Program-made: the position numbers and the translations under genes
Shown: positions 159-37,964 of the stretch, piece by piece
Numbering within the stretch: position 1 is the stretch's first letter
How the letters are laid out: each line of letters begins with the position of its first letter
The notes under the pieces: model-generated
What the model was told of the DNA's origin: nothing
The model's input: only the letters and a program-made list of their open reading frames with translations
The model's database searches: none
Source of the DNA: a phage
Strand: one strand, 5' to 3'
Length of the DNA stretch: 64,000 bases
NCBI GenBank assembly: GCA_011939005.1
Contig: GCA_011939005.1_4858.1

Positions 159-183
159 CACCTAAGTAATATATATCTGAAAT
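159..183 (-). promoter_or_regulatory. early-type promoter motif TTTCAGATATATATTACTTAGGTGA (copy 1)
   Basis: 25-nt motif shared with 29437-29461 and 37940-37964; contains TATATTAC; lies about 50 nt upstream of the start at 107 and just downstream of terminator 240-263. Confidence 0.5.
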
Positions 184-239
184 TTAGTGGACTGGAAGCA
201 AAAAGCATAAGACTGTTCCGATCTGTAAAAAAGACAATA

Positions 240-263
240 CCCTCTTACCCGAAGGTAAGAGGG
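240..263 (-). terminator. intrinsic terminator hairpin, UUCG loop in transcript
   Basis: perfect 10-bp stem CCTCTTACC/GGTAAGAGG with CGAA loop on + (UUCG on -); A-run on + at 226-231; follows stop of 270-893; sequence identical to hairpin at 27500-27523. Confidence 0.5.
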
Positions 264-269
264 GTACAA

Positions 270-893
270 CTAACCTGCCAGAATACGTTCAACGATACGC
301 GCGGCTTGTAACGCTATATCGTCGTCAGCCGTAACACGCATCAGCGGGAACTTATCGCCGCCATCTGTGGTGATGTGGAAAGCAAAACGGTAGTGGTCGC
401 GTAACGCGTCCCAATCAGTCTGTGAGCGCAGATACTTCGCTGTCAGTACCTCATCATCCCAGTTCTTGCCCTGGGCCTCTGCGCGCTTCTTAAAGCGTTC
501 TGTGGCGGTTTCGTAGGATACATCGGTTGCCACGTAAAGTTTCGGTGCGTTAATGTGGTCTAATACCCGTGAACGGAAAACTTCCCCTTTACCATCGACG
601 CCCTGGTAGACAATAGTCGATTGACAAAAACGGTCAAAAATAACGACATCGTGCTCTGGTACAACGAAATCCATCGTGTATTGGAAATCCAGACACATCG
701 CTTTAGCAATGCGTTCGTTAGAAGCGTGCTGGATAACCAGAGAACGTGCACTAATACCGGCTTCAGTGGTATTCGTCGGGTGATTGACGATGATGACATT
801 AACGCCAGCGGAGCGCAACATCGCTTGAATCATTTTCGCGAGTGTTGATTTGCCAGAAAAGTCCGGACCATCCAGCGCCACTGAGTTTAACAT
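270..893 (-). CDS. tmk: thymidylate kinase-like P-loop kinase
   Basis: P-loop LDGPDFSGKST, DRF and lid-like regions align by eye with bacterial Tmk; start moved to ATG 893 (GGGGAAGAA SD) because a terminator hairpin 971-990 lies inside the longer ORF-track extension. Confidence 0.6.
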   Translation of the reverse strand: MLNSVALDGPDFSGKSTLAKMIQAMLRSAGVNVIIVNHPTNTTEAGISARSLVIQHASNERIAKAMCLDFQYTMDFVVPEHDVVIFDRFCQSTIVYQGVDGKGEVFRSRVLDHINAPKLYVATDVSYETATERFKKRAEAQGKNWDDEVLTAKYLRSQTDWDALRDHYRFAFHITTDGGDKFPLMRVTADDDIALQAARIVERILAG

Positions 894-970
894 TTTATTC
901 TTCCCCAAAAGTTTAATTAATTGTAGTGGTGTCACAATATAGCGACCAAACGTAAAGAAAAAAATAAAAC

Positions 971-990
971 AGGCACCCCGAAGGATGCCT
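971..990 (-). terminator. intrinsic terminator hairpin, UUCG loop
   Basis: stem AGGCACCC/GGATGCCT (one mismatch), CGAA loop on +, preceded on + by A-run 948-968; downstream of stop of 1005-1763. Confidence 0.4.
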
Positions 991-1004
991 GACATTAGAT
1001 GTTA

Positions 1005-1763
1005 TTACTCGATAGCCTTGTGGTTCTTCATTTCTGGTGTCCAGGTGTGCTCAATCCATGCTTCGATGACCGGCTTGATGCCCGGACTTTTGAAGAATGC
1101 ATTTAATGACGGCCATTCCCCTAACGCGTACTTGTTAGTGAAATTGAGCGACATTACACTGAAGCCTTCGCGTTTGTTAAACAACGCAGAAGGGGCCAAG
1201 GAATAAGACAACATGGCCTGCGGCGTATCCGATTCGGGACGCAGCAGTGTCATGCGGCGGGTGACACGCAGTTCAATATCGTTGAAGTTAGCCCGGAGGT
1301 CTTCTTTAAATTTGACACTGCGGAAGAAACGATTTCCTGTTTCGGATGCTTTATTTACCAATCGCTCGGTTTGCATCACGTCTTTAAAATACGCATTGAT
1401 GCATTCTTCAATGAAGACATAGCGTGGTGCAGCTTCACGCAGTGCTTCTAAGTCGAACTCTTTCCATGCAGGGATGAGTTCAGGCTTACGGGCGATGTGT
1501 TTAAAGAACATCCTGGCTGAGACTTCACGCAGTGCTTTCAGCAGCCCGCGAATAACAGTTTCCCGCGTTGCGTTAGTTGCGAAGAACTCAGTCGTGCCAT
1601 GTACAACGGTACCGCCTGTTTTAGCGCTGATGAGCTTATGCTCTATCATAATCGGCATCCCGCCCTTGCCGATCATCTCTTCGTTATACAAAAACACATA
1701 ACGATATTCGCCACAGGCAGTGGGGACGGACAGGAACTTTTTCTTCGTAGTATTAACAGTCAT
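1005..1763 (-). CDS. hypothetical protein
   Basis: 252-aa ORF, SD-like AAGAGAGAAA upstream of ATG 1763. Confidence 0.5.
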   Translation of the reverse strand: MTVNTTKKKFLSVPTACGEYRYVFLYNEEMIGKGGMPIMIEHKLISAKTGGTVVHGTTEFFATNATRETVIRGLLKALREVSARMFFKHIARKPELIPAWKEFDLEALREAAPRYVFIEECINAYFKDVMQTERLVNKASETGNRFFRSVKFKEDLRANFNDIELRVTRRMTLLRPESDTPQAMLSYSLAPSALFNKREGFSVMSLNFTNKYALGEWPSLNAFFKSPGIKPVIEAWIEHTWTPEMKNHKAIE

Positions 1764-1855
1764 GGTATTTCTCTCTTAGTTTAAGTTGGTGAGTTTTAAC
1801 CGACTCACAACGGCTTCTAGCATATGCTAAGGATGAAACGTAAATTTTGTACGTC

Positions 1856-1876
1856 TCCCTAAAATAATATCTATCC
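1856..1876 (-). promoter_or_regulatory. promoter-like motif GGATAGATATTATTTTAGGGAG (class 2, copy a)
   Basis: shares GATAGATATTAT(C/T)TTAGGGAG with 22361-22384; sits between terminator 1894-1915 and the start at 1763. Confidence 0.35.
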
Positions 1877-1893
1877 GAAAAACAATAGAGTCG

Positions 1894-1915
1894 ACCCACT
1901 CCCGAAGGAGTGGGT
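1894..1915 (-). terminator. intrinsic terminator hairpin, UUCG loop
   Basis: stem ACCCACTCC/GGAGTGGGT, CGAA loop on +; minus-strand T-rich tract follows; downstream of stop of 1921-2517. Confidence 0.5.
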
Positions 1916-1920
1916 ATAAC

Positions 1921-2517
1921 TCACTGATGATCAACTTTCGGTTCAGACCACTCGGGGACTGGCGGAAGTTTAATATCAGTTGCGTATTCTGATGGCACCG
2001 CGAGTGTGGTAAAGCCACGACACGCCAAATAGTGCTGCATTCGTGCTGCCTGATTCGGTGTATCGGTGATCACCAAATGGGTCTTACGCATAAGTGCGAG
2101 TACCGCCTGTCCTTCTTGCGGCGTAGGTGTGCGTGGATGCTTACTGATAATGCTCATTAACCAGTCACGCGCAATACCACCTACATTACAACTGGCCTCA
2201 CGCAAATCAACCACGCCTTCACCTTCACCCACCACCTGTTTGGTGGAGTTAGGATAAAAGCGATACGGTGCACGACGACGCTTACGACGTACTTCCGAAA
2301 TAGCACGTCCGAGTATCATCTGTGCATGTTTAACGCTACAGCCTTCCACCGGTCTACGCATGTTCGTTACTAAACAGGCAATCTCTAGTACCTTACCGAT
2401 TTGATAACGACGCTTAAAGCCATGACGACTTATGTCTACGTATTCTGGAAGATTGCCGTTTTTATTGATGTTTGCAACCGTAATCAAAAACAGCGAATCG
2501 AGAATCATCTCAGACAT
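1921..2517 (-). CDS. hypothetical protein
   Basis: ORF with ATG at 2517 (GTG at 2520) preceded by AAGGGGAGA SD. Confidence 0.5.
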   Translation of the reverse strand: MSEMILDSLFLITVANINKNGNLPEYVDISRHGFKRRYQIGKVLEIACLVTNMRRPVEGCSVKHAQMILGRAISEVRRKRRRAPYRFYPNSTKQVVGEGEGVVDLREASCNVGGIARDWLMSIISKHPRTPTPQEGQAVLALMRKTHLVITDTPNQAARMQHYLACRGFTTLAVPSEYATDIKLPPVPEWSEPKVDHQ

Positions 2518-2529
2518 CACAGTCTCCCC

Positions 2530-2901
2530 TTAAAACCCCGCAACGACTGCAGCCATAAAGTCATGTACGACTTTACGTTGTTCTGCAAGCGGGTAGCCAA
2601 ATTTAGTAATGTCGTGCATCCACCGAACCCGGTGAGTCCGACCATCGTGACTGAATGTGGAGCGCAGTACCAGGAAATAATCCGCACTGACTCGAAAATG
2701 TAACGAGCAGCTGCCATGTTTGGCTCGCACGGTCAACTGAATACGCTTTACACCGCCGCCTAAATACTTAGCGTCGATGTCGACCTGGTCAACCTCCGAC
2801 ACAGCCCGTAAGGCTTGCGCGACGTCTTCCAGGTCCCCGTTCTTGCTCACATTAGCGCCATGGAGCGCTGCGGTACAGAGTTGAAGCTCTCGATAGAACA
2901 T
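2530..2901 (-). CDS. hypothetical protein
   Basis: 123-aa ORF; AGGAG SD 8 nt upstream of ATG 2901; start lies 55 nt inside the 3' end of the upstream ORF. Confidence 0.45.
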   Translation of the reverse strand: MFYRELQLCTAALHGANVSKNGDLEDVAQALRAVSEVDQVDIDAKYLGGGVKRIQLTVRAKHGSCSLHFRVSADYFLVLRSTFSHDGRTHRVRWMHDITKFGYPLAEQRKVVHDFMAAVVAGF

Positions 2902-3455
2902 CCTTCTAGTCTCCTGTCCCTCCCATAGTTCAAGGGATTTTTATAATACCAATCTTCATGCACAGGAGTCACGCGGATATACCGGCTGTAAAACAACAAG
3001 TATTTGTAGAAGGTATCAATACTGACGTCTTTGTCTACCGATAAAAAGTAGTTTAAAGACGGGTCGTCTGGGAACGACACAAAGATACCGGTGAAGTACG
3101 CATCGGCATAGGGGCCATTAAACGGCGTCACTTCACACTTCAGGCAAGGTAAGCCAACCTGAAACGCGTTCTGTCCTGTCCAGTAAATTCCACGTGTGGT
3201 TGCATCGCGTGTTTTCCCATCGGGACGACAAACAACCCCTGCCATAAAACTGGAGCGTTGACTTGGGTCAGCCGCGTTTAAGAACCGGGTTATTCTGTCT
3301 ACTGAAAAATATTTTAACGTGCCAGGCGGTAATTGCCAGAACTGTCCCATCGCACGTACCACCTTCCAACCAGGGCGATTTCTTGCCCCGAAACGCTTTA
3401 CACAAAAAGTATATCGCGAGCCAGTCTGATGTGGCACGCTGCGGACAGCCACCAT
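2847..3455 (-). CDS. hypothetical protein
   Basis: 202-aa ORF; ATG 3455 immediately follows stop of GNAT gene (TAAnATG). Confidence 0.45.
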   Translation of the reverse strand: MVAVRSVPHQTGSRYTFCVKRFGARNRPGWKVVRAMGQFWQLPPGTLKYFSVDRITRFLNAADPSQRSSFMAGVVCRPDGKTRDATTRGIYWTGQNAFQVGLPCLKCEVTPFNGPYADAYFTGIFVSFPDDPSLNYFLSVDKDVSIDTFYKYLLFYSRYIRVTPVHEDWYYKNPLNYGRDRRLEGCSIESFNSVPQRSMALM

Positions 3456-3456
3456 G

Positions 3457-3921
3457 TTAAAGCTCCTTTACCATATCCTGGTATTCAGTTCGGAATCCGA
3501 AACGTTCATAAAACGCAATAGCACGGTCGTTATTACCGAGCACGTTAAGCTGCATCCATGCGCAGCCTTTTGATTTGCCGTAGTTTTCTACGGCTTCGAT
3601 TAGTTCATGGCCAACGCCTTGCGAACGAACCGATTCATCTACAAAAAAGTTATATACCCAGAGGAAACGTTGTCCCTTTTTGGTGTAGCCGAAGGTGATG
3701 AAACCAACAGCCACACCACGGTCATCAACGGCGCAAGCGCATAGCGTACCTTCACCCCAAACCTCCTCCAGTTTTGAGATTTGATTAAAACCATCACGAC
3801 CGTTTAAGTCGGCGAGTTTTATTTTCTGATCGTCGTATAACTTGTTGTGTAGTCCTAACAAGTCGGCGTAGTATTTCTTTCCATACGGGGAGTTGGGCTT
3901 GGTGACAAAAACGATTTTCAT
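3457..3921 (-). CDS. GNAT family N-acetyltransferase
   Basis: acetyl-CoA binding motif RSQGVGHELIEAVENYGKSKGC and ...AIAFYERFGF; GGAGGG SD; start ATG overlaps upstream stop (ATGA). Confidence 0.6.
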   Translation of the reverse strand: MKIVFVTKPNSPYGKKYYADLLGLHNKLYDDQKIKLADLNGRDGFNQISKLEEVWGEGTLCACAVDDRGVAVGFITFGYTKKGQRFLWVYNFFVDESVRSQGVGHELIEAVENYGKSKGCAWMQLNVLGNNDRAIAFYERFGFRTEYQDMVKEL

Positions 3922-4382
3922 CACACCCTCCAATACATCTGGTAAGCACCTACCTTAAAGCCAGCTTTGTCGTAGAGCGACTTCGCGGCAGCGTTACCGG
4001 CGTTCACGGACAGGTGAACAACTGTACACCCTTTTTCCGTTGCGGATTTCTTTACCGCATCCATCAACGCGGCGCCGTAACCTTTACCACGTGCGCTGCT
4101 GCTAACGACCAGTGAGGATACCGACATCATCGTCACACCCTCTTCAGTCATCGTGCGGTATTGCGCAAAGCCATACAAGACACCGTCGTCCACGACCGCC
4201 AGTAAACGACCCCGGAAGCGCTCGGCTAACGATTTAGCCGGCGTAAAACGGACATTAATACCCGTCTCTTTTCGATAGCTTTCTATTTCGCTTTTGTCCA
4301 GCTCGTTATAAAGCGCGAGGATATCTGTGGAATATTTCCTGCCGTTAGCCGTGTCTGGCCCCACTATGGTAATAATCTTCAT
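3921..4382 (-). CDS. GNAT family N-acetyltransferase (second, tandem)
   Basis: motif ARGKGYGAALMDAVKKSATEKGC ... AAAKSLYDKAGF; GAGGTGA SD; ATGA overlap with upstream gene. Confidence 0.6.
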   Translation of the reverse strand: MKIITIVGPDTANGRKYSTDILALYNELDKSEIESYRKETGINVRFTPAKSLAERFRGRLLAVVDDGVLYGFAQYRTMTEEGVTMMSVSSLVVSSSARGKGYGAALMDAVKKSATEKGCTVVHLSVNAGNAAAKSLYDKAGFKVGAYQMYWRV

Positions 4383-5515
4383 CAGTTCACCTCGGCCAGC
4401 GATTGCTTCGTCCACTCCATTAGACCCTCCGCCACGCGTACCAGTGCCGTGGTGAAAGCGTCTTCCATCGCCATTGCATTACGGTAACGTAACGTGGCCT
4501 CCTTCAGCTCATCCCCTTCTAGGTTCTTAAGCTCGGACTTCATCGCTTCCACTTCTTCGTAAATGCCGGTGTAACCCACAACACGGTTCTTTGTTCCACG
4601 TGCAGCAATAGATTTGATAAGTGCTTCCACAGCCTCTATTGCTTTCCCACACTGATGCATATCCAGCGATTTAATGGTTTCACCATACTCACCGTCACGC
4701 GCAATTGCCCAACTGACCTTACCACTATGGTGCTCAACCACAACGATATTTCCAGGGACAGGAAAAGCTTCCACCTTTTTAAAGGGATCGATGATGCCAA
4801 GCAACCCAGCAGCACGCTTAACTGCCCAGTTCGTAGACTTGCTGATTTGTTTTAAACCTGGGCCTTCAAATGCTTTACTTTTCTTCAGGGCGGTACGTGT
4901 GTAAACTGTGTACTTTTGCACGACCCCTTCGTACGCGTTTGTCTGTTTAGAAAACTTAACACACGCTTCAAAATCTGGCCGATCTTCAAAACAAATTTTA
5001 GACGTCCAGCTACTCGTGTGAACGTCGACCGCAGCGAGTGTTTTGTGGTCATCCAATAACGACATTCGTGCTTTGAGCTTATTGAGCTTACGCTCCATGA
5101 ATGCGGCTTTCGAAGTTATTTCTTTCAAACGGTCGGCTTGTTCTTTCGCTAGCGCTTCCGCGAAATCGTAAAAGCGTAATGCGAGCTTTTTCGAAAGTTT
5201 ACCCGCGCCCTTTGCGGTTGCGCCTAGTCCAGCACCCACTAACTTTCCAGTACCTTTAACAGCTTTCGCAGTAATGCGCCCTGCTGCGCGATGGATGCCA
5301 GCCCGCGGGTCAGTATCAGTCATAAACTGAGCACGCTCCATCGCTTCGCGCGATTCACGAGCAACCAACATATCTTCACCGTCGTCGGTTAAGCACCAAC
5401 GCTGACGAATCGCGCAAACCGCAGGGAAGTCGGGCTTAACTCCCAGACCTTCGAGTGCGACCAGGCGATCGTAGTCGTCAGTCAGGACTTCTAAATCTAA
5501 ATCGAGCGTCGACAT
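4382..5515 (-). CDS. hypothetical protein, possible virion protein
   Basis: 377-aa ORF, AAGGAG SD; Ala/Gly/Lys-rich central region. Confidence 0.5.
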   Translation of the reverse strand: MSTLDLDLEVLTDDYDRLVALEGLGVKPDFPAVCAIRQRWCLTDDGEDMLVARESREAMERAQFMTDTDPRAGIHRAAGRITAKAVKGTGKLVGAGLGATAKGAGKLSKKLALRFYDFAEALAKEQADRLKEITSKAAFMERKLNKLKARMSLLDDHKTLAAVDVHTSSWTSKICFEDRPDFEACVKFSKQTNAYEGVVQKYTVYTRTALKKSKAFEGPGLKQISKSTNWAVKRAAGLLGIIDPFKKVEAFPVPGNIVVVEHHSGKVSWAIARDGEYGETIKSLDMHQCGKAIEAVEALIKSIAARGTKNRVVGYTGIYEEVEAMKSELKNLEGDELKEATLRYRNAMAMEDAFTTALVRVAEGLMEWTKQSLAEVN

Positions 5516-5525
5516 CCCCTGCTCC

Positions 5526-5798
5526 TTACATCTGCGTCAAAGTATAGTAGTAGTTGCGATGTGGCCATCGAACACACAAGGCAAATATCTCTCCCGTATC
5601 CGGCGTGGTGTAAACTGTCTGAATTGGGTCATTTTCTTGTGGTGCGACTTTCGAATCAAAACCGTGGCGTTCCAGGTAATCGAAGAACTCATCCTCGGAG
5701 CCTGGGAACAAGCGAAGGCTAGTCACCTTCTTAATCGGTTTTGACGGCGTAGGGAAGAATGCTTCCCACAAACGACGAGCTAAACTGGTAGTTTGCAT
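5526..5798 (-). CDS. hypothetical protein
   Basis: 90-aa ORF with AGAGGT SD. Confidence 0.45.
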   Translation of the reverse strand: MQTTSLARRLWEAFFPTPSKPIKKVTSLRLFPGSEDEFFDYLERHGFDSKVAPQENDPIQTVYTTPDTGEIFALCVRWPHRNYYYTLTQM

Positions 5799-5828
5799 AA
5801 TAGCGACCTCTGATTAAAGGCAACGTGG

Positions 5829-6428
5829 TCATAATAAGCACAAGCTCTCAAGCCACAGATGTCCTTCAAGCGCATGGTGGTAACAAGGAATACCACACTG
5901 CTTAGCGTATTTCACGCCCATGGCAGTACCGCCGGTCGGATTACCTTGTTTATCTAAAGGCGCAGAGTAATAAACTGCGTCTACAGGCGTTGCTAAATCA
6001 TCGCCCATAATTATATTCAGATTACGGCCATGAAGCGCCCAGGCGAACTCCTGGAGCTTTTCTGGCGCGGGATGAAGCTTACCTACTATCTCACGATAGC
6101 GGTCATCCTGAGGGATTACACGGAACTCTACGTTGGGATTCTGTTTCTTGAGCCAGAGCTTTTTCTCATCGGGTAGGTAACAAATGAACTCATCATCCCA
6201 CGCCATTTTCTTGCCGGTGTTCTGGTCTATTGTATTCGCCCACTGTCGGGCAAATCGGAATTGCAATTGGTCTGGACCACACCAGCAGCCGCCAGAAGAA
6301 AAACGAATCGTGTAATCTTTGGCGTGCAGCGCATTAAACCCACGTAACAATCGCATGTACATTTCAGACATGGTATCTTCATCAGTCTTCCGAGAACCGA
6401 TTACCGCAATTTTATAAATCTTTTTCAT
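5829..6428 (-). CDS. SLOG-superfamily Rossmann-fold protein (DprA/LOG-like), putative
   Basis: N-terminal KIAVIGSR and C-terminal PTGGTAMG resemble DprA/LOG family signatures; strong AGGAGGT SD. Confidence 0.35.
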   Translation of the reverse strand: MKKIYKIAVIGSRKTDEDTMSEMYMRLLRGFNALHAKDYTIRFSSGGCWCGPDQLQFRFARQWANTIDQNTGKKMAWDDEFICYLPDEKKLWLKKQNPNVEFRVIPQDDRYREIVGKLHPAPEKLQEFAWALHGRNLNIIMGDDLATPVDAVYYSAPLDKQGNPTGGTAMGVKYAKQCGIPCYHHALEGHLWLESLCLL

Positions 6429-6477
6429 GGACTTACCTCCTATACGGAGTGGACGATTCGTAAGAAAAAATAAATAC

Positions 6478-6504
6478 CTACCCTCGCTAAACGGGCGAGG
6501 GTAG
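6478..6504 (-). terminator. intrinsic terminator hairpin
   Basis: stem CTACCCTCGC/GCGAGGGTAG; A-run on + side 6463-6470; downstream of stop of 6509-7126. Confidence 0.45.
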
Positions 6505-6508
6505 TGTC

Positions 6509-7126: not shown

Positions 7127-7186
7127 GCCTCGCTCCTGGTATTTGATTAAGGGGGTCATAATACTTCACAGGAAAATAATAAACAG

Positions 7187-7208: not shown

Positions 7209-7216
7209 CGCTGTGT

Positions 7217-7606: not shown

Positions 7607-7608
7607 AT

Positions 7609-22130: not shown

Positions 22131-22166
22131 TGAACATCCCAGTAATAATACCAAAAGAATTATTCA

Positions 22167-22185
22167 CGTAGATAATATCTATCTC
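22167..22185 (-). promoter_or_regulatory. promoter-like motif GAGATAGATATTATCTACG (class 2, copy b)
   Basis: GATAGATATTATC core about 40 nt upstream of ATG 22130. Confidence 0.35.
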
Positions 22186-22243
22186 AGATTACTTTGGGCA
22201 CGGGTTCATACCCAGTGCCCTTAACGTAAAAAACTTTAGGGTA

Positions 22244-22327
22244 TCAAACGTGGTGACCGTTCGCCATAGAACCGCGCCCATCAAACATCGGTGCAACTAG
22301 TCTTGATCTCTCTAAATTGACTTCCAT
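22244..22327 (-). CDS. small ORF (27 aa), candidate
   Basis: AAGGAGA SD 7 nt upstream of ATG 22327 (MEVNLERSRLVAPMFDGRGSMANGHHV); about 40 nt downstream of class-2 motif copy c. Confidence 0.2.
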   Translation of the reverse strand: MEVNLERSRLVAPMFDGRGSMANGHHV

Positions 22328-22360
22328 TACTGTCTCCTTAAGTTAAAACCGAATGACTTT

Positions 22361-22384
22361 CTCCCTAAGATAATATCTATCTAT
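22361..22384 (-). promoter_or_regulatory. promoter-like motif ATAGATAGATATTATCTTAGGGAG (class 2, copy c)
   Basis: near-identical to copy a (1856-1876); directly downstream of terminator 22408-22431. Confidence 0.35.
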
Positions 22385-22407
22385 AAATTTTTAGAAAAAA
22401 AGAAAAA

Positions 22408-22431
22408 GCTTACTCCCCGAAGGGAGTAAGC
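22408..22431 (-). terminator. intrinsic terminator hairpin, UUCG loop
   Basis: perfect 10-bp stem GCTTACTCCC/GGGAGTAAGC, CGAA loop on +, A-run 22394-22407 on +; follows stop of 22463-24763. Confidence 0.55.
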
Positions 22432-22462
22432 TAATCTTAGGCAACGTAATCCTTACGGATTA

Positions 22463-27173: not shown

Positions 27174-27196
27174 CAGGTTGTTAATATATCGCTGCG
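27174..27196 (-). promoter_or_regulatory. early-type promoter motif variant CAGCGATATATTAACAACCTG
   Basis: ATATATTAAC differs by 1 nt from the ATATATTACC core of the three main copies; about 20 nt upstream of the SD of 27011-27157. Confidence 0.3.
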
Positions 27197-29241: not shown

Positions 29242-29384
29242 TAGCCGCGACCTGTACACATGGCAACAGAGTTACCGTTATCGATGCACTTGTTGTAATC
29301 TTGAGTTACAGTGATAGACAGTACCGCGAAAGCAACAACAGCAACGATGGCGAAGATGGCACGTTTATGGTTACGAGTTAACAT
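29241..29384 (-). CDS. small hydrophobic membrane peptide (47 aa)
   Basis: ATG 29384 preceded by conserved leader ...CTAAAGGAGTATTACC; single hydrophobic helix AIFAIVAVVAFAVLSITV; below ORF-track length cutoff. Confidence 0.35.
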   Translation of the reverse strand: MLTRNHKRAIFAIVAVVAFAVLSITVTQDYNKCIDNGNSVAMCTGRG

Positions 29385-29436
29385 GGTAATACTCCTTTAG
29401 ATTAATAGTCGATTGTGTTGATAGATTGTCTTCTAT

Positions 29437-29461
29437 CACCTAGGTAATATATATCTGAAAT
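29437..29461 (-). promoter_or_regulatory. early-type promoter motif TTTCAGATATATATTACCTAGGTGA (copy 2)
   Basis: 25-nt motif, identical to 37940-37964 and 1 nt different from 159-183. Confidence 0.5.
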
Positions 29462-29480
29462 TATTTTTATTCAGAGTACA

Positions 29481-29532
29481 CCCTCTATAACGCTCTCAAA
29501 CGCGTTTTGAGAGCTTTTATCACTATAGAGGG
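29481..29532 (-). other. nested palindromic stem-loop element
   Basis: outer 9-bp stem CCCTCTATA/TATAGAGGG enclosing inner 8-bp hairpin CTCTCAAA-CGCG-TTTGAGAG; lies between terminator 29597-29619 and promoter 29437-29461. Confidence 0.35.
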
Positions 29533-29596
29533 TCGTTCTACCGTTAGAGAGGCTTTAGAAGGTTGTGAGTGCGTTTAGAGGGCTAAAATAAAGAGA

Positions 29597-29619
29597 CCTG
29601 GTCTCACAAGGAGACCAGG
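29597..29619 (-). terminator. intrinsic terminator hairpin
   Basis: stem CCTGGTCTC/GAGACCAGG with ACAAG loop; A-rich 29584-29594 on +; follows stop of 29627-30424. Confidence 0.5.
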
Positions 29620-29626
29620 CACACTT

Positions 29627-30424
29627 TTACATCAAATCCAGGCTCTGTGAGACCGCAACTTCCGGTTCACTGATGCCGCTGGTCACTGACAATGTAAAGC
29701 GACGATCGTTAATCACTTCAACTGCTTCGCTCGCACGCAGTGAATACTTGTCGGCGATTGGCAGTACACTGTTATCGTTCTGTGGCGGCAGAATCTGCGC
29801 CGGGAACGGAATGTACGAGTTGAAAGTGATATACGGACCGACTTGCATCATCGGGAACACTTCGTTCACGTTATTCGACATCCCTTCATCCGAAGAGATA
29901 ACGGAGTGACGCAGACAGGCACGCAAGCCAACGGTGTACTCCGGATCGCGCGATTCGCCGATCAGTGCGAAACGGAACACATTGAAATCGTAGTCGTCTG
30001 CAGCGAAGTGTTCTGGCAGGATACGCTGTACGTATTCAGGGTAAGTGGTCACGTCACCCGGAATAACATTCACGGCGAGTTTCTGTGCCAGGAAATACGC
30101 ATTCGCGAAACCATACTGACCCGCCAGCGCGGCTGAAATCGGTGCTGTGGTTACGCAGTGCAGGAATAAGTGATAACCCAGCCCGCCTTTATCTTCGATT
30201 GCCAGGTCCTTCTTACTCTGCACACCGTCAGCAGTATAAATAACTGCTACTGTCTTATCCAACGTCGACGCCATGACAAAATCCAACTGCACCTCACCGC
30301 TCTGCGGTAGTACCTTAACCAGGCGATCCCAGAGCTTGGTCGGTTTGGTGAAGTTAGCGGCTTCATACGCGTCAATGTCGAGAACAGTTTGGCCGGTCAT
30401 GCGAAAGGTGTGAATCGCTTTCAT
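29627..30424 (-). CDS. hypothetical protein, possible structural protein
   Basis: 265-aa ORF with AAGGAAAA SD. Confidence 0.5.
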   Translation of the reverse strand: MKAIHTFRMTGQTVLDIDAYEAANFTKPTKLWDRLVKVLPQSGEVQLDFVMASTLDKTVAVIYTADGVQSKKDLAIEDKGGLGYHLFLHCVTTAPISAALAGQYGFANAYFLAQKLAVNVIPGDVTTYPEYVQRILPEHFAADDYDFNVFRFALIGESRDPEYTVGLRACLRHSVISSDEGMSNNVNEVFPMMQVGPYITFNSYIPFPAQILPPQNDNSVLPIADKYSLRASEAVEVINDRRFTLSVTSGISEPEVAVSQSLDLM

Positions 30425-30467
30425 TGCAATATTTTCCTTAAGGTTACTTACGGGTCATACTAGATGA

Positions 30468-31781: not shown

Positions 31782-32320
31782 TAGCGACCTCCTCGGGCTC
31801 TATAAGCGTACTCAATACGTTTCATAATCGTATCATTAAAACGGTGGAGTTTAGACTCCAGGCGGACCTGTCCAAATAACGACTGAACACAGTCCGCCAT
31901 CGTTGCGGTGGGTTTCTTGAAATACCCGTAGCGGTTAGCCACAGGAAACAGTTTCGAAGCCAGCACATTGAACTGACGCAACCCTTCGATAGGGACTTCC
32001 CGGTAAATCAGCGTCGGGTTCTCCAGATAGTTCAGCCAGTCCGCAAGGTGTTCCATAATCCACCCGTACACTTTAATCCCGTCATGCGGGTCGTGTACAT
32101 CTAACGCACCACCGGTCGCTAAATACTCAGCAGCTTCCGAGGGGTGCAGATAGATAGGCTTCATGTTCAGTAACAACGCTTGTCGTTTCTTCGGGTCTTC
32201 TGGCAAGAACAATCCGTGTTCCTGACTGGCGTAGGTTGTGATGGTTGCGTATTCCGGTACCCGGAAGAACACCCACGCTTTAAACAGCATAAATGCTGCA
32301 CTGCGCTTCTTCTCCGACAT
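31781..32320 (-). CDS. hypothetical protein
   Basis: 179-aa ORF with GAGGTAGTA SD. Confidence 0.5.
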   Translation of the reverse strand: MSEKKRSAAFMLFKAWVFFRVPEYATITTYASQEHGLFLPEDPKKRQALLLNMKPIYLHPSEAAEYLATGGALDVHDPHDGIKVYGWIMEHLADWLNYLENPTLIYREVPIEGLRQFNVLASKLFPVANRYGYFKKPTATMADCVQSLFGQVRLESKLHRFNDTIMKRIEYAYRARGGR

Positions 32321-32322
32321 TA

Positions 32323-33678
32323 CTACCTCGCGTATTTCAAAATCACGTAGACCATCGGGACGTAATAGAACTGACTGTCCTTCGGTAAAGCCAGCACCAA
32401 TTCTGCTAAACGTGCAGCCACTTCACTAGGTACTGGTTGTTTGTTCAGATACAGGTACAAACAATGCTCCAGAACCGAGCTGTACGAGCCGCTATAGAAC
32501 GTTTCGCTTAACAGGTAGGGTTTATACGTCAACGGCAGAAAAGCCACCATATCCTCGCCTGCGTTGCCCTGATACTCAGGGAACATAACCGGTTCGAATG
32601 CTTCGAACTCTGGCCACTCCCCATCGTACGTTGCCAACTGACGAATCTGTGATGTAAAGTAACGCGTCGAACTGAACTGTGACCATGCAATAGTGTTGCG
32701 GGTCTGCATCGTTCTGAATGTGCGCGGGTTAACTGCGCTGCATTCTTTCTCGACGTACGGTAGCAGTTCTGGCTGTTGATTTAACAACACCGTGAACAGT
32801 GTTTCGATATCCTGCACAGGTTTCGGCGGGTGTGGGTAAATACGGATATCTTTACCAACGGTTCGAAGACCAATAGCCTTCACAAACATCGCCAAGAAGA
32901 CGTCGTAGTAGCCACCTGCCTTTAACCCGTCGAGTTTCCAGTCGCGTGGATAAGCAAGGGTTTCTAAACTGGTATCGTAGAAACGGCGAACAAACGTCGT
33001 CTCAATGTCCTTAATGCGGTCTCCCAGCTCCAGGAACGTACGATACTCGTTGGGGGTCAGTAAGGTATCACCACCGGTCCACGCGCGCTCACGGACGTAA
33101 TGGAGCGTTCTCACAGTGCACAGACGAATCGTCTCTGCAATCTGCGGTGTAATCTCGTACAACATCGTGTAACGTATCTGGTACGTTGCAATTTTGTTGT
33201 TCGACATTCGGGTAACGGCAGTGATGTTAAACAGTCCGTGTCGATGGTCGCCTATCGGCGCAACAAAGAAGTCACCCTCGTTCGGTGTAATCGATGCTAC
33301 CAGGGTCGACGTCCCGGTCAGTTCGAAAGTCTTACGTTGTTCGTCCTGCGTACGGTCGAGCGGTGCGTTAACACGTAATGACAGATTAACAATCTTAAGC
33401 AGCTGTTGCGTAGGGCTGTCATTCTGAGTATCGAACATCGTCTTCGGATCGTTGCGACCCGACAACGCGTGATAAAAATCAACCGGCCATTCAGAACCTT
33501 CGTTGTATTGCAGGAGATACTGTTTCGGAATCCTGTCGAAGTCCGTTACCGTGGTGCGGGTTGGAATCGTTACCAAGTTGCTGGCTTCTTTTACCCCGTC
33601 CTGCGGTTTATTGATAATCGGAATCTCAGGTTCAACAGGAACGAATTTAGTATCACCCCTCTTGTTCGCCTTGAGCAT
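32323..33678 (-). CDS. hypothetical protein, possible structural protein
   Basis: 451-aa ORF with GAGGAG SD. Confidence 0.5.
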   Translation of the reverse strand: MLKANKRGDTKFVPVEPEIPIINKPQDGVKEASNLVTIPTRTTVTDFDRIPKQYLLQYNEGSEWPVDFYHALSGRNDPKTMFDTQNDSPTQQLLKIVNLSLRVNAPLDRTQDEQRKTFELTGTSTLVASITPNEGDFFVAPIGDHRHGLFNITAVTRMSNNKIATYQIRYTMLYEITPQIAETIRLCTVRTLHYVRERAWTGGDTLLTPNEYRTFLELGDRIKDIETTFVRRFYDTSLETLAYPRDWKLDGLKAGGYYDVFLAMFVKAIGLRTVGKDIRIYPHPPKPVQDIETLFTVLLNQQPELLPYVEKECSAVNPRTFRTMQTRNTIAWSQFSSTRYFTSQIRQLATYDGEWPEFEAFEPVMFPEYQGNAGEDMVAFLPLTYKPYLLSETFYSGSYSSVLEHCLYLYLNKQPVPSEVAARLAELVLALPKDSQFYYVPMVYVILKYAR

Positions 33679-35155
33679 TATCGGCTCCTCTGATGGCTAT
33701 AATCGTGGTATTAAATTGCGTCAACAGGACACGGCGATAGAACTTCGTGATTTCATCAATCACACTTGGTGGTAACACAGGTTTATCCCACCACCAATCC
33801 GGGCAATCCCAATCTGGGAATAACCACTCAATAAGCACTTTTGCCGCTTTTGGATAAAGATGCAGTGGCCATAAGTCCATATTACGCCAGTCGTGTATTG
33901 CCGACTCTGTTAAGTAGTACGCTTTCTCGACATGAACTTCACGGTTACGTAGCGAGAAGACACCGTTTTCCCAATGGTAGAAACGTGGTTCAATGATTTG
34001 ACCATTCTCGAACAATTCCATACGGATAATGCCCGTCTGACCTGTCGGGTCTATCGTGCGACAGTGCTCGATATAAGGAACCACGTCGGCATTCCAGACA
34101 TACGGTAAATCATCGATACTACAAACCTCAGGGTCGATCATGTTTTCTTCACCGAAGGCTACATCGGTGCCGAACACATGCAGAAGCTTTGCTTTTAGCG
34201 GCGAGTGTGTACGTTCGAACTGTTCTGTCGGTGACAGCAGATACGGTAGGCGTAAGAACTGGCGAGATTCATTAATCCACCAAGTGCCGTCAAGGTTCTT
34301 TTGCTGTTGGTGACGTTGCACGCCCTCTTCATTACTCACAAACGGTGGGTCTATCTCAGGCCACCATTCATCAGGCAACGGTGTCTGGTTGATAATGTAC
34401 GGGTAGGTAATCACCACCTCTTCGGGTCGCTGATACGAGAAGCGTATAACGAAGCTGGTCTCGTAATGGTTTTCGTCGTTATCCCAGGTAGGAGAGATAA
34501 CATCGTAAACCGTCTCGATACGGGTTGGTGCATAACGCACCGCTAAGACATTCTGGCCACCGGCGACATTGCCTGTGGTGAAAACGTCGGGTGTGAAATG
34601 TGCCTTTAGATAGGCTTTAAAGTCATCGTATTTCGGCACACGGGTCCCTGCGGCGATATAGCATTCGTTCAATAGCTTAAGCGCAGGTTTTGGAATCAAG
34701 TAATACGCTTCGGATTCTGTCATGGTCGAATAGCGACCCATGTCGATAAGTGAATCCAGGCGGTTCGCCCAACGTAACAATTCGTCACGCGATGGGCCGA
34801 CACGCCGTAGCGTGATAGTCACGTTATACATTACGCGGACAGGAGCGGCGCGTACTTGGTCTTCGGGGTTATGGAAGAATGGAATCTCTGCCGCTAACCC
34901 AACTTGACGGTTAATGCGTGCGCGTTCATCACGTTCTTCTTCCACTTCGACGTAGACACGGTTCGGTGCTGAATAGTCCACCGGTGTCTCATCGCCGAGC
35001 GTAGAGCCTGGCTGATGGGCGGTGTTGAAGCTATCCGTGAAAACAACACTGGCACGTTCAATACCAGATTCGTTTAGCACACGTTCTACGACGCCGTCGA
35101 CCACAGCTTTGCGCATGGTCTTGTCCAACGATGGAATTTCAAAATACTGTTGCAT
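33653..35155 (-). CDS. hypothetical protein, possible structural protein
   Basis: 500-aa ORF with GAGGGACAG SD; 26-nt overlap with downstream gene. Confidence 0.5.
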   Translation of the reverse strand: MQQYFEIPSLDKTMRKAVVDGVVERVLNESGIERASVVFTDSFNTAHQPGSTLGDETPVDYSAPNRVYVEVEEERDERARINRQVGLAAEIPFFHNPEDQVRAAPVRVMYNVTITLRRVGPSRDELLRWANRLDSLIDMGRYSTMTESEAYYLIPKPALKLLNECYIAAGTRVPKYDDFKAYLKAHFTPDVFTTGNVAGGQNVLAVRYAPTRIETVYDVISPTWDNDENHYETSFVIRFSYQRPEEVVITYPYIINQTPLPDEWWPEIDPPFVSNEEGVQRHQQQKNLDGTWWINESRQFLRLPYLLSPTEQFERTHSPLKAKLLHVFGTDVAFGEENMIDPEVCSIDDLPYVWNADVVPYIEHCRTIDPTGQTGIIRMELFENGQIIEPRFYHWENGVFSLRNREVHVEKAYYLTESAIHDWRNMDLWPLHLYPKAAKVLIEWLFPDWDCPDWWWDKPVLPPSVIDEITKFYRRVLLTQFNTTIIAIRGADNAQGEQEG

Positions 35156-35204
35156 TAGCTGTCCCTCGTTGTAGTCATATCACTGGCCTAAAACGCAAAA
35201 AAAA

Positions 35205-35227
35205 GAAAGGGAGCCGAAACTCCCTTC
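35205..35227 (-). terminator. intrinsic terminator hairpin
   Basis: stem AGGGAG/CTCCCT with CCGAAA loop; A-run 35196-35204 on +; follows stop of 35233-35562. Confidence 0.45.
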
Positions 35228-35232
35228 GTGTT

Positions 35233-35562
35233 TTAGTGGGCCAGCCAAGCCAGCTGCCACTTCTTACATTTTATTCCGCTGTGCCCAACCGGATTGCGGA
35301 TAATGTCCATCGTTTGCCCGACAACGAATTCAATCATCTTGTCTGATAGCATTTTACCCATCGCGATAGAGAGGGCCGTAATTTGATCAGGGTCATCGAT
35401 GTACGCATAGACCGGCTCATTACTGCCGAAGATAAGATAGAAGGAACCCTCGCACACCACGATTGAGGTCAGTGGCACGATACACCCGGTATACTCTCTC
35501 GCCAGTTCAGCCGCTTTTGGGGTTACTTCCATCACGTAACCCTTAACAGATTTCTTTTCCAC
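35233..35562 (-). CDS. hypothetical protein
   Basis: ORF begins with GTG at 35562 (GGAG SD) right after DHFR stop; alternative ATG at 35532 with AAGGG SD. Confidence 0.4.
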   Translation of the reverse strand: MEKKSVKGYVMEVTPKAAELAREYTGCIVPLTSIVVCEGSFYLIFGSNEPVYAYIDDPDQITALSIAMGKMLSDKMIEFVVGQTMDIIRNPVGHSGIKCKKWQLAWLAH

Positions 35563-35563
35563 T

Positions 35564-36115
35564 TTAAACTCCAGCGATACGATTTAAAATTTGATACGTC
35601 CAACGGTGCGTGTGTTTCTGGCCGTCGGGTAAATGGGTCATGGTGTAGTCGACTTGAAAAACATCTCTGTCGATTTCTGGGAAGAAAGCATCTGCACCTT
35701 CAACGGCAATGTCAATACGCGATAGATAAATACGATCCGCACGAGCGAGGGTTTGTTGATAAACTGATGCGCCACCAATAATCATCACCTCTTGCTCTTT
35801 TCCGGTATCTTTCTCGATACGTTCCAGAGCTTTGATGGCTAAATCAATACTCGTGTGAAACGTCACCAAACGCATGTCCGTGTGTTCTTCCCGGCCACTG
35901 ATATACCCTTCTGGGTTACGAGTAACAATTAAGTTGCCGCGGTTAGGCAAAGGACGACAACCTAACGATTCCCAGGTCTTACTGCCCATGATAACGTTCT
36001 TCCCTGTGGTGATTGCCTTAAAGTTAGCCAGGTCGGCAGGCAGACGCCACGGCAGTTCATTGTTTTTACCGATGGCGTTGTTGCGGTCCATCGCGACGAT
36101 AATAGAGAGTTTCAC
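35564..36115 (-). CDS. frd: dihydrofolate reductase
   Basis: IIVAMDRNNAIGKNNELPWRLPADLANFKAITTGKNVIMGSKTWESLG..RPLPNRGNLIVTR and IIGGASVY match the DHFR signature regions closely. Confidence 0.85.
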   Translation of the reverse strand: MKLSIIVAMDRNNAIGKNNELPWRLPADLANFKAITTGKNVIMGSKTWESLGCRPLPNRGNLIVTRNPEGYISGREEHTDMRLVTFHTSIDLAIKALERIEKDTGKEQEVMIIGGASVYQQTLARADRIYLSRIDIAVEGADAFFPEIDRDVFQVDYTMTHLPDGQKHTHRWTYQILNRIAGV

Positions 36116-36483
36116 GGTTTGCTCCTACGGGCTTTAGATAATTCTTTCATTGCGTGGCGTAAATGGCGACTAAATTCAAGACGGCTATACGAGAATGTCA
36201 CCGGATAGTCCAGAATCACCGACAGTGATACCGTTCTGGCATCCACATCGACCAACAGACTGTTCGTACAGCAACCTGCAAACATCCCACTACCAACCAA
36301 CGGCCTCTTAAGCCTAATAGTTAGCGTACCAAGCCATTCTCTGTCGCCGAGCAGCAACAAGGCCTCTGCCAGGTCTTCTTCAACTACCGCTAGACAGTAT
36401 TCGTCATCTCGTACACGGAGGCGAATCTGCGGTTCTACGTTTGCGGTTTCTGGCGTCATCTCAAATTTAAATTTATCGGTCAT
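36112..36483 (-). CDS. hypothetical protein
   Basis: ORF with ATG 36483 (GTG 36486); its stop overlaps the DHFR start. Confidence 0.45.
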   Translation of the reverse strand: MTDKFKFEMTPETANVEPQIRLRVRDDEYCLAVVEEDLAEALLLLGDREWLGTLTIRLKRPLVGSGMFAGCCTNSLLVDVDARTVSLSVILDYPVTFSYSRLEFSRHLRHAMKELSKARRSKP

Positions 36484-36501
36484 CACACAATCCCAAAAAA
36501 G

Positions 36502-36524
36502 AAGGTGGCATGTTAGGCCACCTT
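36502..36524 (-). terminator. intrinsic terminator hairpin
   Basis: stem AAGGTGGC/GCCACCTT; A-run 36495-36501 on +; follows stop of 36531-37076. Confidence 0.45.
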
Positions 36525-36530
36525 ATTAAA

Positions 36531-37076
36531 TCATTGAACCATACGCTGCGCGTCGTAAGACGGTGCGAGGTTCACAACACGACCATGTAGAGTTTGCTCT
36601 GCTTCGTCTAACAGGTCATCACGTACGAGTGTCTGGCGAATATAGAGTGTTGCACGCACCCCTTCTGCATTATAAGGAGCGGTGACCATTTTGGTCTGGT
36701 AACCATCAATCGTCACCGGAACACGCTCACCGTTACGACGAACAAAATGCTCCAACTTACCGTAATCGTGACTGCAGACTTTAGACATGTCAGACAATCC
36801 CGCATCGATTAAATATTTCCAAAGTGCGATGATGCCTTCTGAGCAATGTTTGTTAAGTTCGCCTTCGACGACAAACTCGTACCCACCGTACGTTAGAATG
36901 TGCGTGCCTGCTGAGCGACGGTCACATTCTAAAATAAACACACCTAGACCAATCATAACTGGACGTGGAATTGTCATGACACTGGTACTAAATTGCAGCG
37001 TAGTAACCTCATCCCAAAGGGGCGATGATTTATCGTTACTTACGCTAACAATATCTTTAAGATTGACACGTTTCAT
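36531..37076 (-). CDS. hypothetical protein
   Basis: 181-aa ORF; start preceded by conserved leader AATCGACCATTAATCTTAAGGAGTATT. Confidence 0.5.
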   Translation of the reverse strand: MKRVNLKDIVSVSNDKSSPLWDEVTTLQFSTSVMTIPRPVMIGLGVFILECDRRSAGTHILTYGGYEFVVEGELNKHCSEGIIALWKYLIDAGLSDMSKVCSHDYGKLEHFVRRNGERVPVTIDGYQTKMVTAPYNAEGVRATLYIRQTLVRDDLLDEAEQTLHGRVVNLAPSYDAQRMVQ

Positions 37077-37114
37077 TATAAATACTCCTTAAGATTAATG
37101 GTCGATTACATACG

Positions 37115-37130
37115 GTTTCGGGCTAACGTA
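37115..37130 (-). promoter_or_regulatory. possible degenerate early-type promoter (GTAAATATTACGTTAG)
   Basis: ATATTAC core followed by the conserved leader of 36531-37076; no terminator between it and the upstream gene. Confidence 0.25.
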
Positions 37131-37134
37131 ATAT

Positions 37135-37896
37135 TTACGCTGCTGGTTCTTCAGCGGTTTTCACTTCAACTGGTTTCATCAGCGAGTTCGCACAGTCGAA
37201 GATAGCATCCAGGAAACCACGGAACGGCTTCATGGCTTCACGCTGGGCGTTCTGACGTTCTTCTTCAGCTGCGACTTCTTGCGCCTGAATTTCTTCAGCA
37301 GTCAGCTCCGGGTGTTCCGTCATGCTTTCTGCCAGCGTCATCACTTTCGGCTGCGCATTCCGAATCGGAATACGGCGGATGACCTTGGTGATGTTCCCGA
37401 GCTTCATGCCACCCAGCACGGTTTCGAACAGCGTACCGAAATCCTGCAGTGGATCTTCGCTGACTTCCAGTACCGCCGGAGTCGCAACCAGACCAATGGC
37501 AATGACCAGTTCAACAACAGTGTCAGTGACGTGCACAGCGAACGGGGTGTCTTCCATCTGCAGGTAAGTGTTACCATTATAGGTCACCGGAATGAATTTG
37601 ATTTCTTCCCCTTTCTTCAGTCGCAGTGTATCGACTGCGGCTTTGTACTGAACTTCGTACAGTTCCGGTTTAACACCGTCAACGTTATCCAGTGTAAAGA
37701 GCAGGTCACCAACCGCCATACGGCGCGGCAGTTTGCGTTTGTTGATTTCGCGCAGCCAGACTTGTAAGCCTGTGAATTGAATTGGGGACAGTATAATTTT
37801 AAAGCCGTTGGTTGCTTGCAGGATAGCACCGTCGTCTTCGTTACGTTCGATAGAGCCATTAGCCAGAGTGAGCAGATTGATAGTTTTCATTTTCAT
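37135..37896 (-). CDS. hypothetical protein with acidic C-terminus
   Basis: 253-aa ORF downstream of promoter copy 3. Confidence 0.5.
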   Translation of the reverse strand: MKMKTINLLTLANGSIERNEDDGAILQATNGFKIILSPIQFTGLQVWLREINKRKLPRRMAVGDLLFTLDNVDGVKPELYEVQYKAAVDTLRLKKGEEIKFIPVTYNGNTYLQMEDTPFAVHVTDTVVELVIAIGLVATPAVLEVSEDPLQDFGTLFETVLGGMKLGNITKVIRRIPIRNAQPKVMTLAESMTEHPELTAEEIQAQEVAAEEERQNAQREAMKPFRGFLDAIFDCANSLMKPVEVKTAEEPAA

Positions 37897-37939
37897 ATTC
37901 CTTAAGTGATAGTCGGTTAAAAGATTACCAATGCAATCT

Positions 37940-37964
37940 CACCTAGGTAATATATATCTGAAAT
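37940..37964 (-). promoter_or_regulatory. early-type promoter motif TTTCAGATATATATTACCTAGGTGA (copy 3)
   Basis: 25-nt motif identical to copy 2; directly downstream of terminator 37999-38020. Confidence 0.5.

Follow-up and report, generated by a model that had tools for sequence, protein, structure and literature searches.

The early promoters of phage phiKZ and its virion RNA polymerase, reportedly the subject of Ceyssens 2014, are the closest described system to the repeats analysed here, which lie in a stretch of phage DNA of 64,000 nucleotides (nt) (GenBank assembly GCA_011939005.1, contig GCA_011939005.1_4858.1). The whole stretch is called the window, and coordinates are those of the window unless another genome is named. 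According to a review (PMC7598289), bioinformatics finds in every jumbo phage that encodes an RNA polymerase (RNAP) a highly conserved A/T-rich element, about 10 nt long and close to position -10 of the early operons. The AR9 early consensus is AAATATATATTAT-(6N)-G+1, and phiKZ and phiR1-37 starts are likewise found 6 nt past the element; the AR9 early promoter was assigned to the virion RNA polymerase (vRNAP) because early transcription is chloramphenicol-independent (PMC5312081). The window repeats are probably (roughly 0.7) early-gene expression cassettes of an SPN3US-like, phiKZ-related jumbo phage, consisting of a vRNAP promoter, a hairpin at the 5′ end of the transcript, a translation leader and an upstream terminator.

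In reverse orientation, a 4-kb piece of the window shows 98% identity to SPN3US, a jumbo phage of Salmonella, and to its Seoulvirus relatives, and the window corresponds to approximately 31–95 kb of NC_027402 (SPN3US) as the reverse complement, with genes mostly on the minus strand. SPN3US is phiKZ-related. Its annotated vRNAP genes are gp42, gp218, gp240, gp241 and gp244, and the genes annotated for the non-virion RNA polymerase (nvRNAP) include gp35 and gp77 among others; the original gp number equals 266 minus the ACQ60 locus tag. A scan of the whole window with Rfam 15 gave zero matches at the gathering score.

The 25-mer TTTCAGATATATATTACYTAGGTGA, which a sequence-only reading of the window had reported three times on the minus strand, has exactly three matches there, at positions 158–182, 29436–29460 and 37939–37963, and none of 100 shuffles gives a match. 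The sites had been located correctly, with the numbers set one base too high. Two degenerate copies proposed at the same time, at 27174–27196 and 37115–37130, do not stand, as they score -0.3 and -14.5 bits with the family matrix (see below) compared with 38–47 bits for the true copies. The 25-mer is the core of a promoter of about 40 bp with the phiKZ early core, TATATTAC-N6-G, and the layout is an A-rich tract, then TTTCAGATA, TATATTAC and YTAGGT. Scanned with the family matrix, the window shows six sites at 38–47 bits, all on the minus strand, and the next best match is at 8.5 bits. The motif family had thus been seen in part: the three full copies are members of it but represent only its best-conserved subclass, and three further members in the window had been missed. 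The three cassettes, termed A, B and C, and the other three promoters are as follows.

160–197, minus strand: cassette A promoter (-38 to -1), TATATTAC class, 46.0 bits, predicted start G at 159
29438–29475, minus strand: cassette B promoter, TATATTAC class, 45.1 bits, predicted start G at 29437
37941–37978, minus strand: cassette C promoter, TATATTAC class, 47.0 bits, predicted start G at 37940
1858–1895, minus strand: family promoter, GATAGATATTAT class, 38.0 bits, predicted start at 1857, with a terminator just upstream
22364–22401, minus strand: family promoter, GATAGATATTAT class, 45.1 bits, predicted start at 22363, directly after the terminator of the major capsid gene and driving a 27-amino-acid (aa) open reading frame
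22166–22203, minus strand: family promoter, GATAGATATTAT class, 42.5 bits, predicted start at 22165, heading the operon of gp76, gp77 (N-terminal fragment of nvRNAP beta) and gp78

The full motif CAGATATATATTACYTAGGTG is present in six copies in the SPN3US genome (five exact, one with a single mismatch), all of them intergenic and in gene orientation. The relaxed core GATA[G/T]ATATTA[T/C] yields many more SPN3US sites with the same flanks: the core is preceded by an A-rich tract and TTTCA/TCTGA, and followed by CTnnGn and the G. The family matrix was built from 20 of the relaxed-core sites and gives a bimodal genome scan. There are 23 sites at 29 bits or better, one of them inside a coding sequence; below them, at up to 21 bits, the scan picks up these same sites on the reverse strand because their core is partly palindromic, and otherwise nothing exceeds approximately 12 bits. 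All 23 sites are on the coding strand, so that the genome-wide check proposed in the sequence-only reading finds no equal spread of the motif over both strands or over coding sequence.

The family pattern is GATA[G/T]ATATTA[T/C]-N6-G. The TATATTAC subclass, with six sites per genome, is the best conserved among the approximately 23 family sites, most of the others carrying the GATAGATATTAT core. Over 40 copies the A/T-rich ATTAAAAAWRATTTCAG, around -20 and -30, is conserved, and G is found at N6+1 in every copy; predicted starts in SPN3US, at the G six bases after TATATTAC/GATATTAT, include positions 56313, 65432 and 94258. The TATATTAC subclass heads genes without known function, a helix-turn-helix (HTH) regulator and an operon containing dihydrofolate reductase (DHFR). 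Family promoters also head all three nvRNAP gene clusters, with starts before gp22-gp23 (15633), before gp30-32 (23829) and gp34-35 (28988), and before gp76-gp77 (window 22165/22363). There is no family site directly upstream of any vRNAP gene in SPN3US.

Two side observations concern these promoters. The GATAGATATTATCT core is partly palindromic (AGATA-N5-TATCT) and gives weak reverse-strand matches, e.g. at window position 22185 on the plus strand; at SPN3US 191601 (minus strand)/191621 (plus strand) a reverse match of 20.6 bits faces a gene transcribed in the divergent direction, and the site at 191.6 kb may therefore be bidirectional. The 27-aa open reading frame at 22244–22327 (minus strand) is unannotated in NC_027402 and has a strong Shine-Dalgarno (SD) sequence, TAAGGAG. 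It is situated just after the major capsid gene and between the tandem promoters with starts at 22363 and 22165, and a hairpin, GGGCAC..GTGCCC, is found on its 3′ side.

The likeness to the phiKZ early promoter, suggested in the sequence-only reading, is borne out by the phiKZ genome, where TATATTAC-N6-G occurs 11 times in bases 1–100,000, always on the coding strand and 10 times in intergenic regions. One of these sites is upstream of PHIKZ054, which has a primary start with the early motif by differential RNA sequencing (PMC8244752), and another is upstream of PHIKZ068, a sigma-like nvRNAP subunit. With a matrix made from ten phiKZ sites alone, the six SPN3US TATATTAC sites rank 1–6 of 480,750 positions (26–33 bits), and SPN3US sites with the GATATTAY core are found at ranks 7–10 and again further down the list. 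By tblastn, SPN3US gp23, gp30 and gp34 match PHIKZ055, PHIKZ068 and PHIKZ071/073, and thus two SPN3US promoter positions are syntenic with phiKZ early promoters. In every sequence-level respect the window sites are of the phiKZ-type early-promoter class, with a putative +1 and putatively early expression. The early reading is supported at this level by strand specificity, by gene orientation and by the position at the head of nvRNAP clusters.

Both groups of promoters share the identical core TATATTAC, the G six bases downstream and an A/T-rich tract at -20 to -35, and both are intergenic, in gene orientation and upstream of nvRNAP or chimallin-region genes. However, phiKZ belongs to a different genus and infects a different host, and the SPN3US group displays a longer invariant block, TTTCAGATATATATTACYTAGGTGAG, as well as a second and commoner core, GATAGATATTAT. 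The phiKZ early leaders are also short and mostly without a hairpin, unlike those of the SPN3US TATATTAC cassettes. AR9 shares the architecture and a nearly identical element (ATATATATTAY-N6-G), but has a uracil-containing genome and a Gram-positive host and is not nucleus-forming, and the module of 5′ hairpin and leader has not been reported for it. A loose scan of IMG/VR for TTTAA-N4-TATATTAC-N6-G gave, among the matches listed, mostly chance matches in A/T-rich contigs. In this model of initiation, the multisubunit vRNAP packaged in the virion would recognise the promoter and start at the G six bases after TATATTAC, as suggested by the sequence and by phiKZ, AR9 and phiR1-37.

As the sequence-only reading had stated, a hairpin directly follows each full copy of the 25-mer, and a further one is found at another family promoter of the window.

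139–159, minus strand: cassette A hairpin GAGAGTT-ACTACTA-AACTCTC, +1 to +21
29420–29437, minus strand: cassette B hairpin GATAGA-AGACAA-TCTATC
37921–37940, minus strand: cassette C hairpin GAGATTGC-ATTG-GTAATCTT, 60.5 bits
1835–1857, minus strand: 8-bp 5′ hairpin opening the transcript from 1857

An exact-pattern scan of IMG/VR gave 49 matches and 41 distinct copies from jumbo-phage contigs, which represent SPN3US, phiEaH2, ChrisDB, Huxley, Caitlin, Phobos and several uncultivated genomes. In 40 copies, the first 28 nt of the transcript show a mean z = -2.31 against dinucleotide shuffles. A stem of at least 5 bp starting at +1 to +3 is present in 31 of the 40, compared with a mean of 9.1 and a maximum of 15 in the shuffles, and control windows further downstream show a stem in 0–4 of 40; these shuffle and downstream-window controls are independent of any alignment. 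The hairpin spans +1 to +27, and its first paired base is offset from the predicted +1 by 0 in 32 of 38 folded copies, by 1 in one copy and by 2 in five.

The pairing is kept while the sequence differs, a claim made earlier for the three window copies that extends to 42 distinct copies related to them, in Erwinia jumbo phages and in SPN3US-like ones. The stem sequences vary widely, e.g. GAACTTGC/GTAAGTTT, GAGCATTGA/TCAATGCTT, GAGGAT/ATCCTC and GATAGA/TCTATC. MAFFT followed by RNAalifold on the unanchored +1 to +30 sequences predicted no structure because loop lengths vary, and a covariance-model alignment was used instead. In its 42 distinct rows, 91.7% of the cells are standard pairs compared with 74.2% in shuffles (a value reached by 0 of 500), cells changed on both sides number 51 versus 18.4 in shuffles, and five of the eight pairs show compensatory change. 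When the 3′ partner is slid by one to three columns, 38–52% of cells are paired. The hairpin exists and is under selection, and the folding and covariance analysis agrees with the functional 5′ RNA structure proposed at the outset, in the form of a covarying, selected hairpin in the sense-strand RNA. Owing to G·U pairs, folding is better in the sense than in the antisense strand for 35 of 40 copies, which argues for a hairpin that works as RNA or, at the least, within the non-template strand. Orthologues of cassette A, situated before the HTH gene in SPFM4 and in Erwinia phage Asesino, keep the stem and display a changed loop.

The hairpin is found in all six SPN3US TATATTAC promoters versus three of the 17 other family promoters (Fisher p = 0.0008), and most promoters outside the TATATTAC subclass have leaders of 21–36 nt with no room for a hairpin. 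Thus the hairpin is tied to the TATATTAC subclass and not to the polymerase. In phiKZ, as a separate observation, among ten early promoters examined only that of the chimallin (nuclear-shell) gene PHIKZ054, at phiKZ positions 45568–45648, gives a transcript with a strong 5′-terminal hairpin (28 nt, z -2.8).

E. coli mRNAs are stabilised by stem-loops at the 5′ terminus when at most a few unpaired nucleotides precede them. In the cassettes, the predicted transcript opens with GAGAG and would fold at once into a stem-loop of 6–9 bp that includes the first nucleotide. The hairpin would in this way protect the 5′ end of the message: with the end sequestered, decay dependent on it (RppH/RNase E) may be slowed, as with the 5′ stem-loops of ompA and T7 gene 10, where the stem-loop also starts within about 0–2 nt of the 5′ end. 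The T7 phi10 promoter and gene 10 leader reportedly have the same arrangement as the cassettes, i.e. a phage-polymerase promoter, a stem-loop at +1, an unstructured A/U-rich enhancer and a strong SD. However, there is no sequence relationship with T7 or ompA, the polymerase here is multisubunit, and the stabilising effect is putative.

The leader before the ATG, previously described as shared by all three cassettes, is exact in two of them. The 24-nt sequence CGACTATTAATCTAAAGGAGTATT is found at 111–134 and at 29388–29411, whereas the third copy has diverged to CCGACTATCACTTAAGGAA. A third close match to the 24-mer, with two mismatches, is at 37081–37104 before a promoter-less gene of the cassette C operon.

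105–134, minus strand: cassette A leader box CGACTAT, SD AAGGAG and ATG (105–107) of the HTH-regulator gene (SPN3US gp101), with a 5′ untranslated region (UTR) of 52 nt
29382–29411, minus strand: cassette B leader box, SD and ATG (29382–29384) of a 47-aa hydrophobic small protein (SPN3US 65485–65628), with a 5′ UTR of 53 nt
37888–37915, minus strand: cassette C diverged leader CGACTATCACTTAAGGAATATGAAAATG, likely start ATG at 37888–37890, of the gene equivalent to SPN3US gp55
37074–37104, minus strand: promoter-less copy of the leader box, CGACCATTAATCTTAAGGAGTATT, and ATG, before the second gene of the cassette C operon

The HTH-regulator gene of cassette A runs past the window start. It and DHFR, which is encoded further along the cassette C operon, are exceptions among the genes 3′ of the cassettes, which are mostly without known function; Pfam and PHROGs searches of the downstream proteins assigned no function. 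This gene content is typical of early genes.

Leader length is 45–64 nt in 37 of the 39 copies where the start codon can be placed, and from the end of the hairpin to the end of the SD the RNA is predicted to be unpaired. In about half of the copies, across genera, (T/C)GACYAT is found just 5′ of AAGGAG/AAGGAA. The composite of box, SD and start, CGACYAT-N-AAGGAG plus ATG, occurs 10 times in the SPN3US genome versus 0.9 expected, and four occurrences are within the window. Three or four copies of the box precede internal genes of operons started by TATATTAC promoters, including window 37074–37104, SPN3US 167595 and SPN3US 224200, and the box is kept approximately 26 nt before the ATG even at these promoter-less genes. 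Just upstream of the window example is the rejected promoter copy at 37115–37130, with its -14.5 bits. The presence of the box at promoter-less internal genes ties it to translation initiation and not to the promoter. With the box (T/C)GACYAT placed some 26 nt ahead of the ATG and with its strong SD, AAGGAG, the unstructured A/U-rich leader of 25–35 nt may give efficient ribosome loading.

Two other roles considered for the leader box, as a sigma-70 -35 element and as a palindromic operator, were dropped. Its spacing to any -10-like hexamer is poor, its position tracks the ATG and not the transcription start, and it is present at internal genes. In the transcript from 22363, the leader carries TTTTAACTTAAGGAG at 22330–22345 (minus strand), which appears to resemble the T7 gene 10 'epsilon' enhancer region, TTAACTTTAAGAAGGAG.

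An intrinsic terminator is situated upstream of five of the six window promoters, including those of all three cassettes.

240–263, minus strand: terminator CCCTCTTACCTTCGGGTAAGAGGG then a T-run, ending the thymidylate-kinase operon, ahead of cassette A
29596–29620, minus strand: terminator after the upstream gene, with a long compound hairpin next, before cassette B
37997–38022, minus strand: terminator GAATCCCCCACTTCGGTGGGGGATT then a T-run, situated between the internal-head-protein gene and cassette C
1896–1925, minus strand: terminator ahead of the promoter with start 1857
22405–22440, minus strand: terminator of the major capsid gene, ahead of the promoter with start 22363

A C-rich stem with a CTTCGG loop is common to the terminators before cassettes A and C and before the starts at 1857 and 22363, whereas the cassette B terminator differs in both stem and loop. 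Conserved terminator motifs have been reported for phiKZ and 201phi2-1. The upstream terminator would insulate each unit from the preceding genes, which are often late genes (internal head proteins, major capsid protein).

The 170-nt intergenic sequence upstream of cassette B, 29461–29630 (minus strand), has a minimum free energy of -50.7 kcal/mol and z -4.24. It contains the terminator and then the compound hairpin CCCTCTATA..GCTCTCAAA-ACGCG-TTTGAGAGC..TATAGAGGG, and the fold may belong to a small RNA or to a structured 3′ end.

The 5′ hairpin might instead be a promoter-proximal attenuator or terminator, which releases RNAs of about 20–25 nt or tunes read-through. A run of at least four T follows 10 of 38 hairpins, the SPN3US copy at 165706 has a true terminator at +24 to +52, and 201phi2-1 makes small RNAs through premature termination in 5′ UTRs according to the literature. 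Most copies, however, have no U-tract; past the hairpin, the transcripts starting at 159 and 29437 continue with TAATCG and AACACA, respectively. The terminator scan that detects the upstream terminators called none of the cassette hairpins, whose stems are A/U-rich. Nor is a strict start at +1 needed for termination. Attenuation as the main role of the hairpin is therefore improbable.

At SPN3US NC_027402 165686–165790, the TATATTAC promoter and hairpin are followed by the terminator at +24 to +52 (GGCTACCTTCGGGTAGCC then T6), a CGACTGT box and the ATG of gp180. This arrangement would produce an RNA of about 55 nt or act as an attenuator.

It is likewise improbable that the repeats are chiefly mobile cassettes in which an identity of about 100 bp results from recombination that shuffles the flanked genes, and the conserved hairpin and leader are by-products of gene conversion. 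The PeSL (promoter-early stem-loop) cassettes of T4-type phages are repeated units of this kind, about 100 bp long, each of which combines a strong early promoter with a terminator-like stem-loop and an SD before small genes of unknown function (PMC2839356, PMC4122927). The window cassettes show the same succession of terminator, early promoter and stem-loop, with the SD placed last on the 3′ side; two SPN3US copies are identical in their leaders of 27 nt, and SPFM1 contains a scrambled cassette copy. However, the PeSL promoter is of the sigma-70 type and its stem-loop is G/C-rich and works as a terminator around the promoter (PMC2839356, PMC4122927), whereas here the covarying hairpin forms the first 20 nt of the transcript, the terminator is separate and upstream, and shuffling is not evident. 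Genes downstream of the cassettes have, for the most part, orthologues in both Salmonella and Erwinia phages, and thus the cassette positions appear stable. The stems differ among copies and yet stay paired, which is the opposite of homogenisation, and conservation of the leader box extends to genes with no promoter of their own.

The scrambled copy, of cassette A, is at SPFM1 LR535901 148435–149761 and runs from leader and gene start through promoter and 5′ hairpin arm to terminator; either recombination or an error of assembly may have produced it.

There is little probability that the motif is an early promoter read with host sigma-70, like those of T4-type phages, in which TATATT would be the -10 and TTAAAA a weak -35 element. 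By eye, TATATT matches TATAAT at five of six positions, a -35-like hexamer with four of six matches is situated 17 bp upstream, and the implied start is near the same G. A consensus scan of the three cassettes, however, gave no sigma-70-like match. Conservation extends over approximately 40 bp and includes positions irrelevant to sigma-70, and the same core serves phiKZ in Pseudomonas, where vRNAP is credited with early transcription.

That the motif is a middle or late nvRNAP promoter is very improbable as well. Several copies are found within regions of virion genes, e.g. behind the genes for internal head proteins and for the major capsid protein, but a terminator separates each cassette from the upstream late gene, and the minus-strand structural blocks of SPN3US contain zero family copies. 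In phiKZ the motif of middle promoters is AAAATTACC/TACT, positioned near -22, and that of late promoters is TATG+1; neither resembles the TATATTAC family, which heads the nvRNAP genes themselves. It is hardly credible that the hairpin acts in DNA as part of the promoter, as in phage N4, whose virion RNA polymerase needs a DNA hairpin and is likewise carried in the virion, since the hairpin here is downstream of the predicted start and not upstream on the template strand as the N4 type is, the sense strand folds better than the template strand through G·U pairs, and the hairpin is missing from most phiKZ promoters and from 14 of the 17 other SPN3US family promoters.

Several points weigh against early cassettes with a protective 5′ hairpin as the reading of these repeats. 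The 'early' label and the position of +1 rest on analogy, and the role given to the hairpin is deduced from its position only. The stems are short and A/U-rich (-6 to -8 kcal/mol). The T-runs after some of the hairpins and the terminator of the copy at 165706 suggest that some attenuating role may accompany protection. The covariation alignment was fitted to the model and its sequences are related to one another, and the leader box might reflect common descent of duplicated cassettes and not function. In addition, phiKZ early transcripts are mostly without a 5′ hairpin (mean z -0.39), and thus the hairpin is neither intrinsic to vRNAP promoters nor required for vRNAP initiation.

An extension of the early-cassette reading, itself unlikely, is that the TATATTAC cassettes constitute a small post-transcriptional regulon. 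The hairpin at +1 and the (T/C)GACYAT box would then be recognised by a phage factor that coordinates about six immediate-early operons apart from the approximately 17 other early promoters. Candidates for such a factor are a repressor or activator of translation, an RNase, and a system that sorts or exports the transcripts of the injected polymerase.

The promoter class is known, and its SPN3US member has probably already been predicted; Lavysh 2016 is said to show, probably, a predicted early motif for SPN3US. No description was found in the literature searched of the coupled hairpin and leader module, of its limitation to the consensus-grade subclass or of its conservation in Salmonella and Erwinia jumbo phages, and the words 'hairpin', 'stem-loop' and 'UTR' do not occur in a 2026 review. 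The attached hairpin and leader are new, a modest detail. In the same literature neither a transcript map for the SPN3US/Erwinia jumbo-phage group nor data on transcription starts, timing or polymerase dependence in SPN3US-like phages were found.

The analysis provides a sequence-level map of likely vRNAP early promoters for the SPN3US/Erwinia jumbo-phage group, with exact predicted starts. The promoter specificity of vRNAP appears, from the motifs, almost unchanged between phiKZ (Pseudomonas) and SPN3US (Salmonella). The tripartite module, which consists of a consensus-grade promoter, a covarying 5′ hairpin and a shared translation leader, is lacking from most phiKZ early genes. Should the hairpin prove to stabilise early mRNAs, the module would show how these phages secure the immediate-early burst before protective compartments form, and would offer compact expression parts for engineering them.

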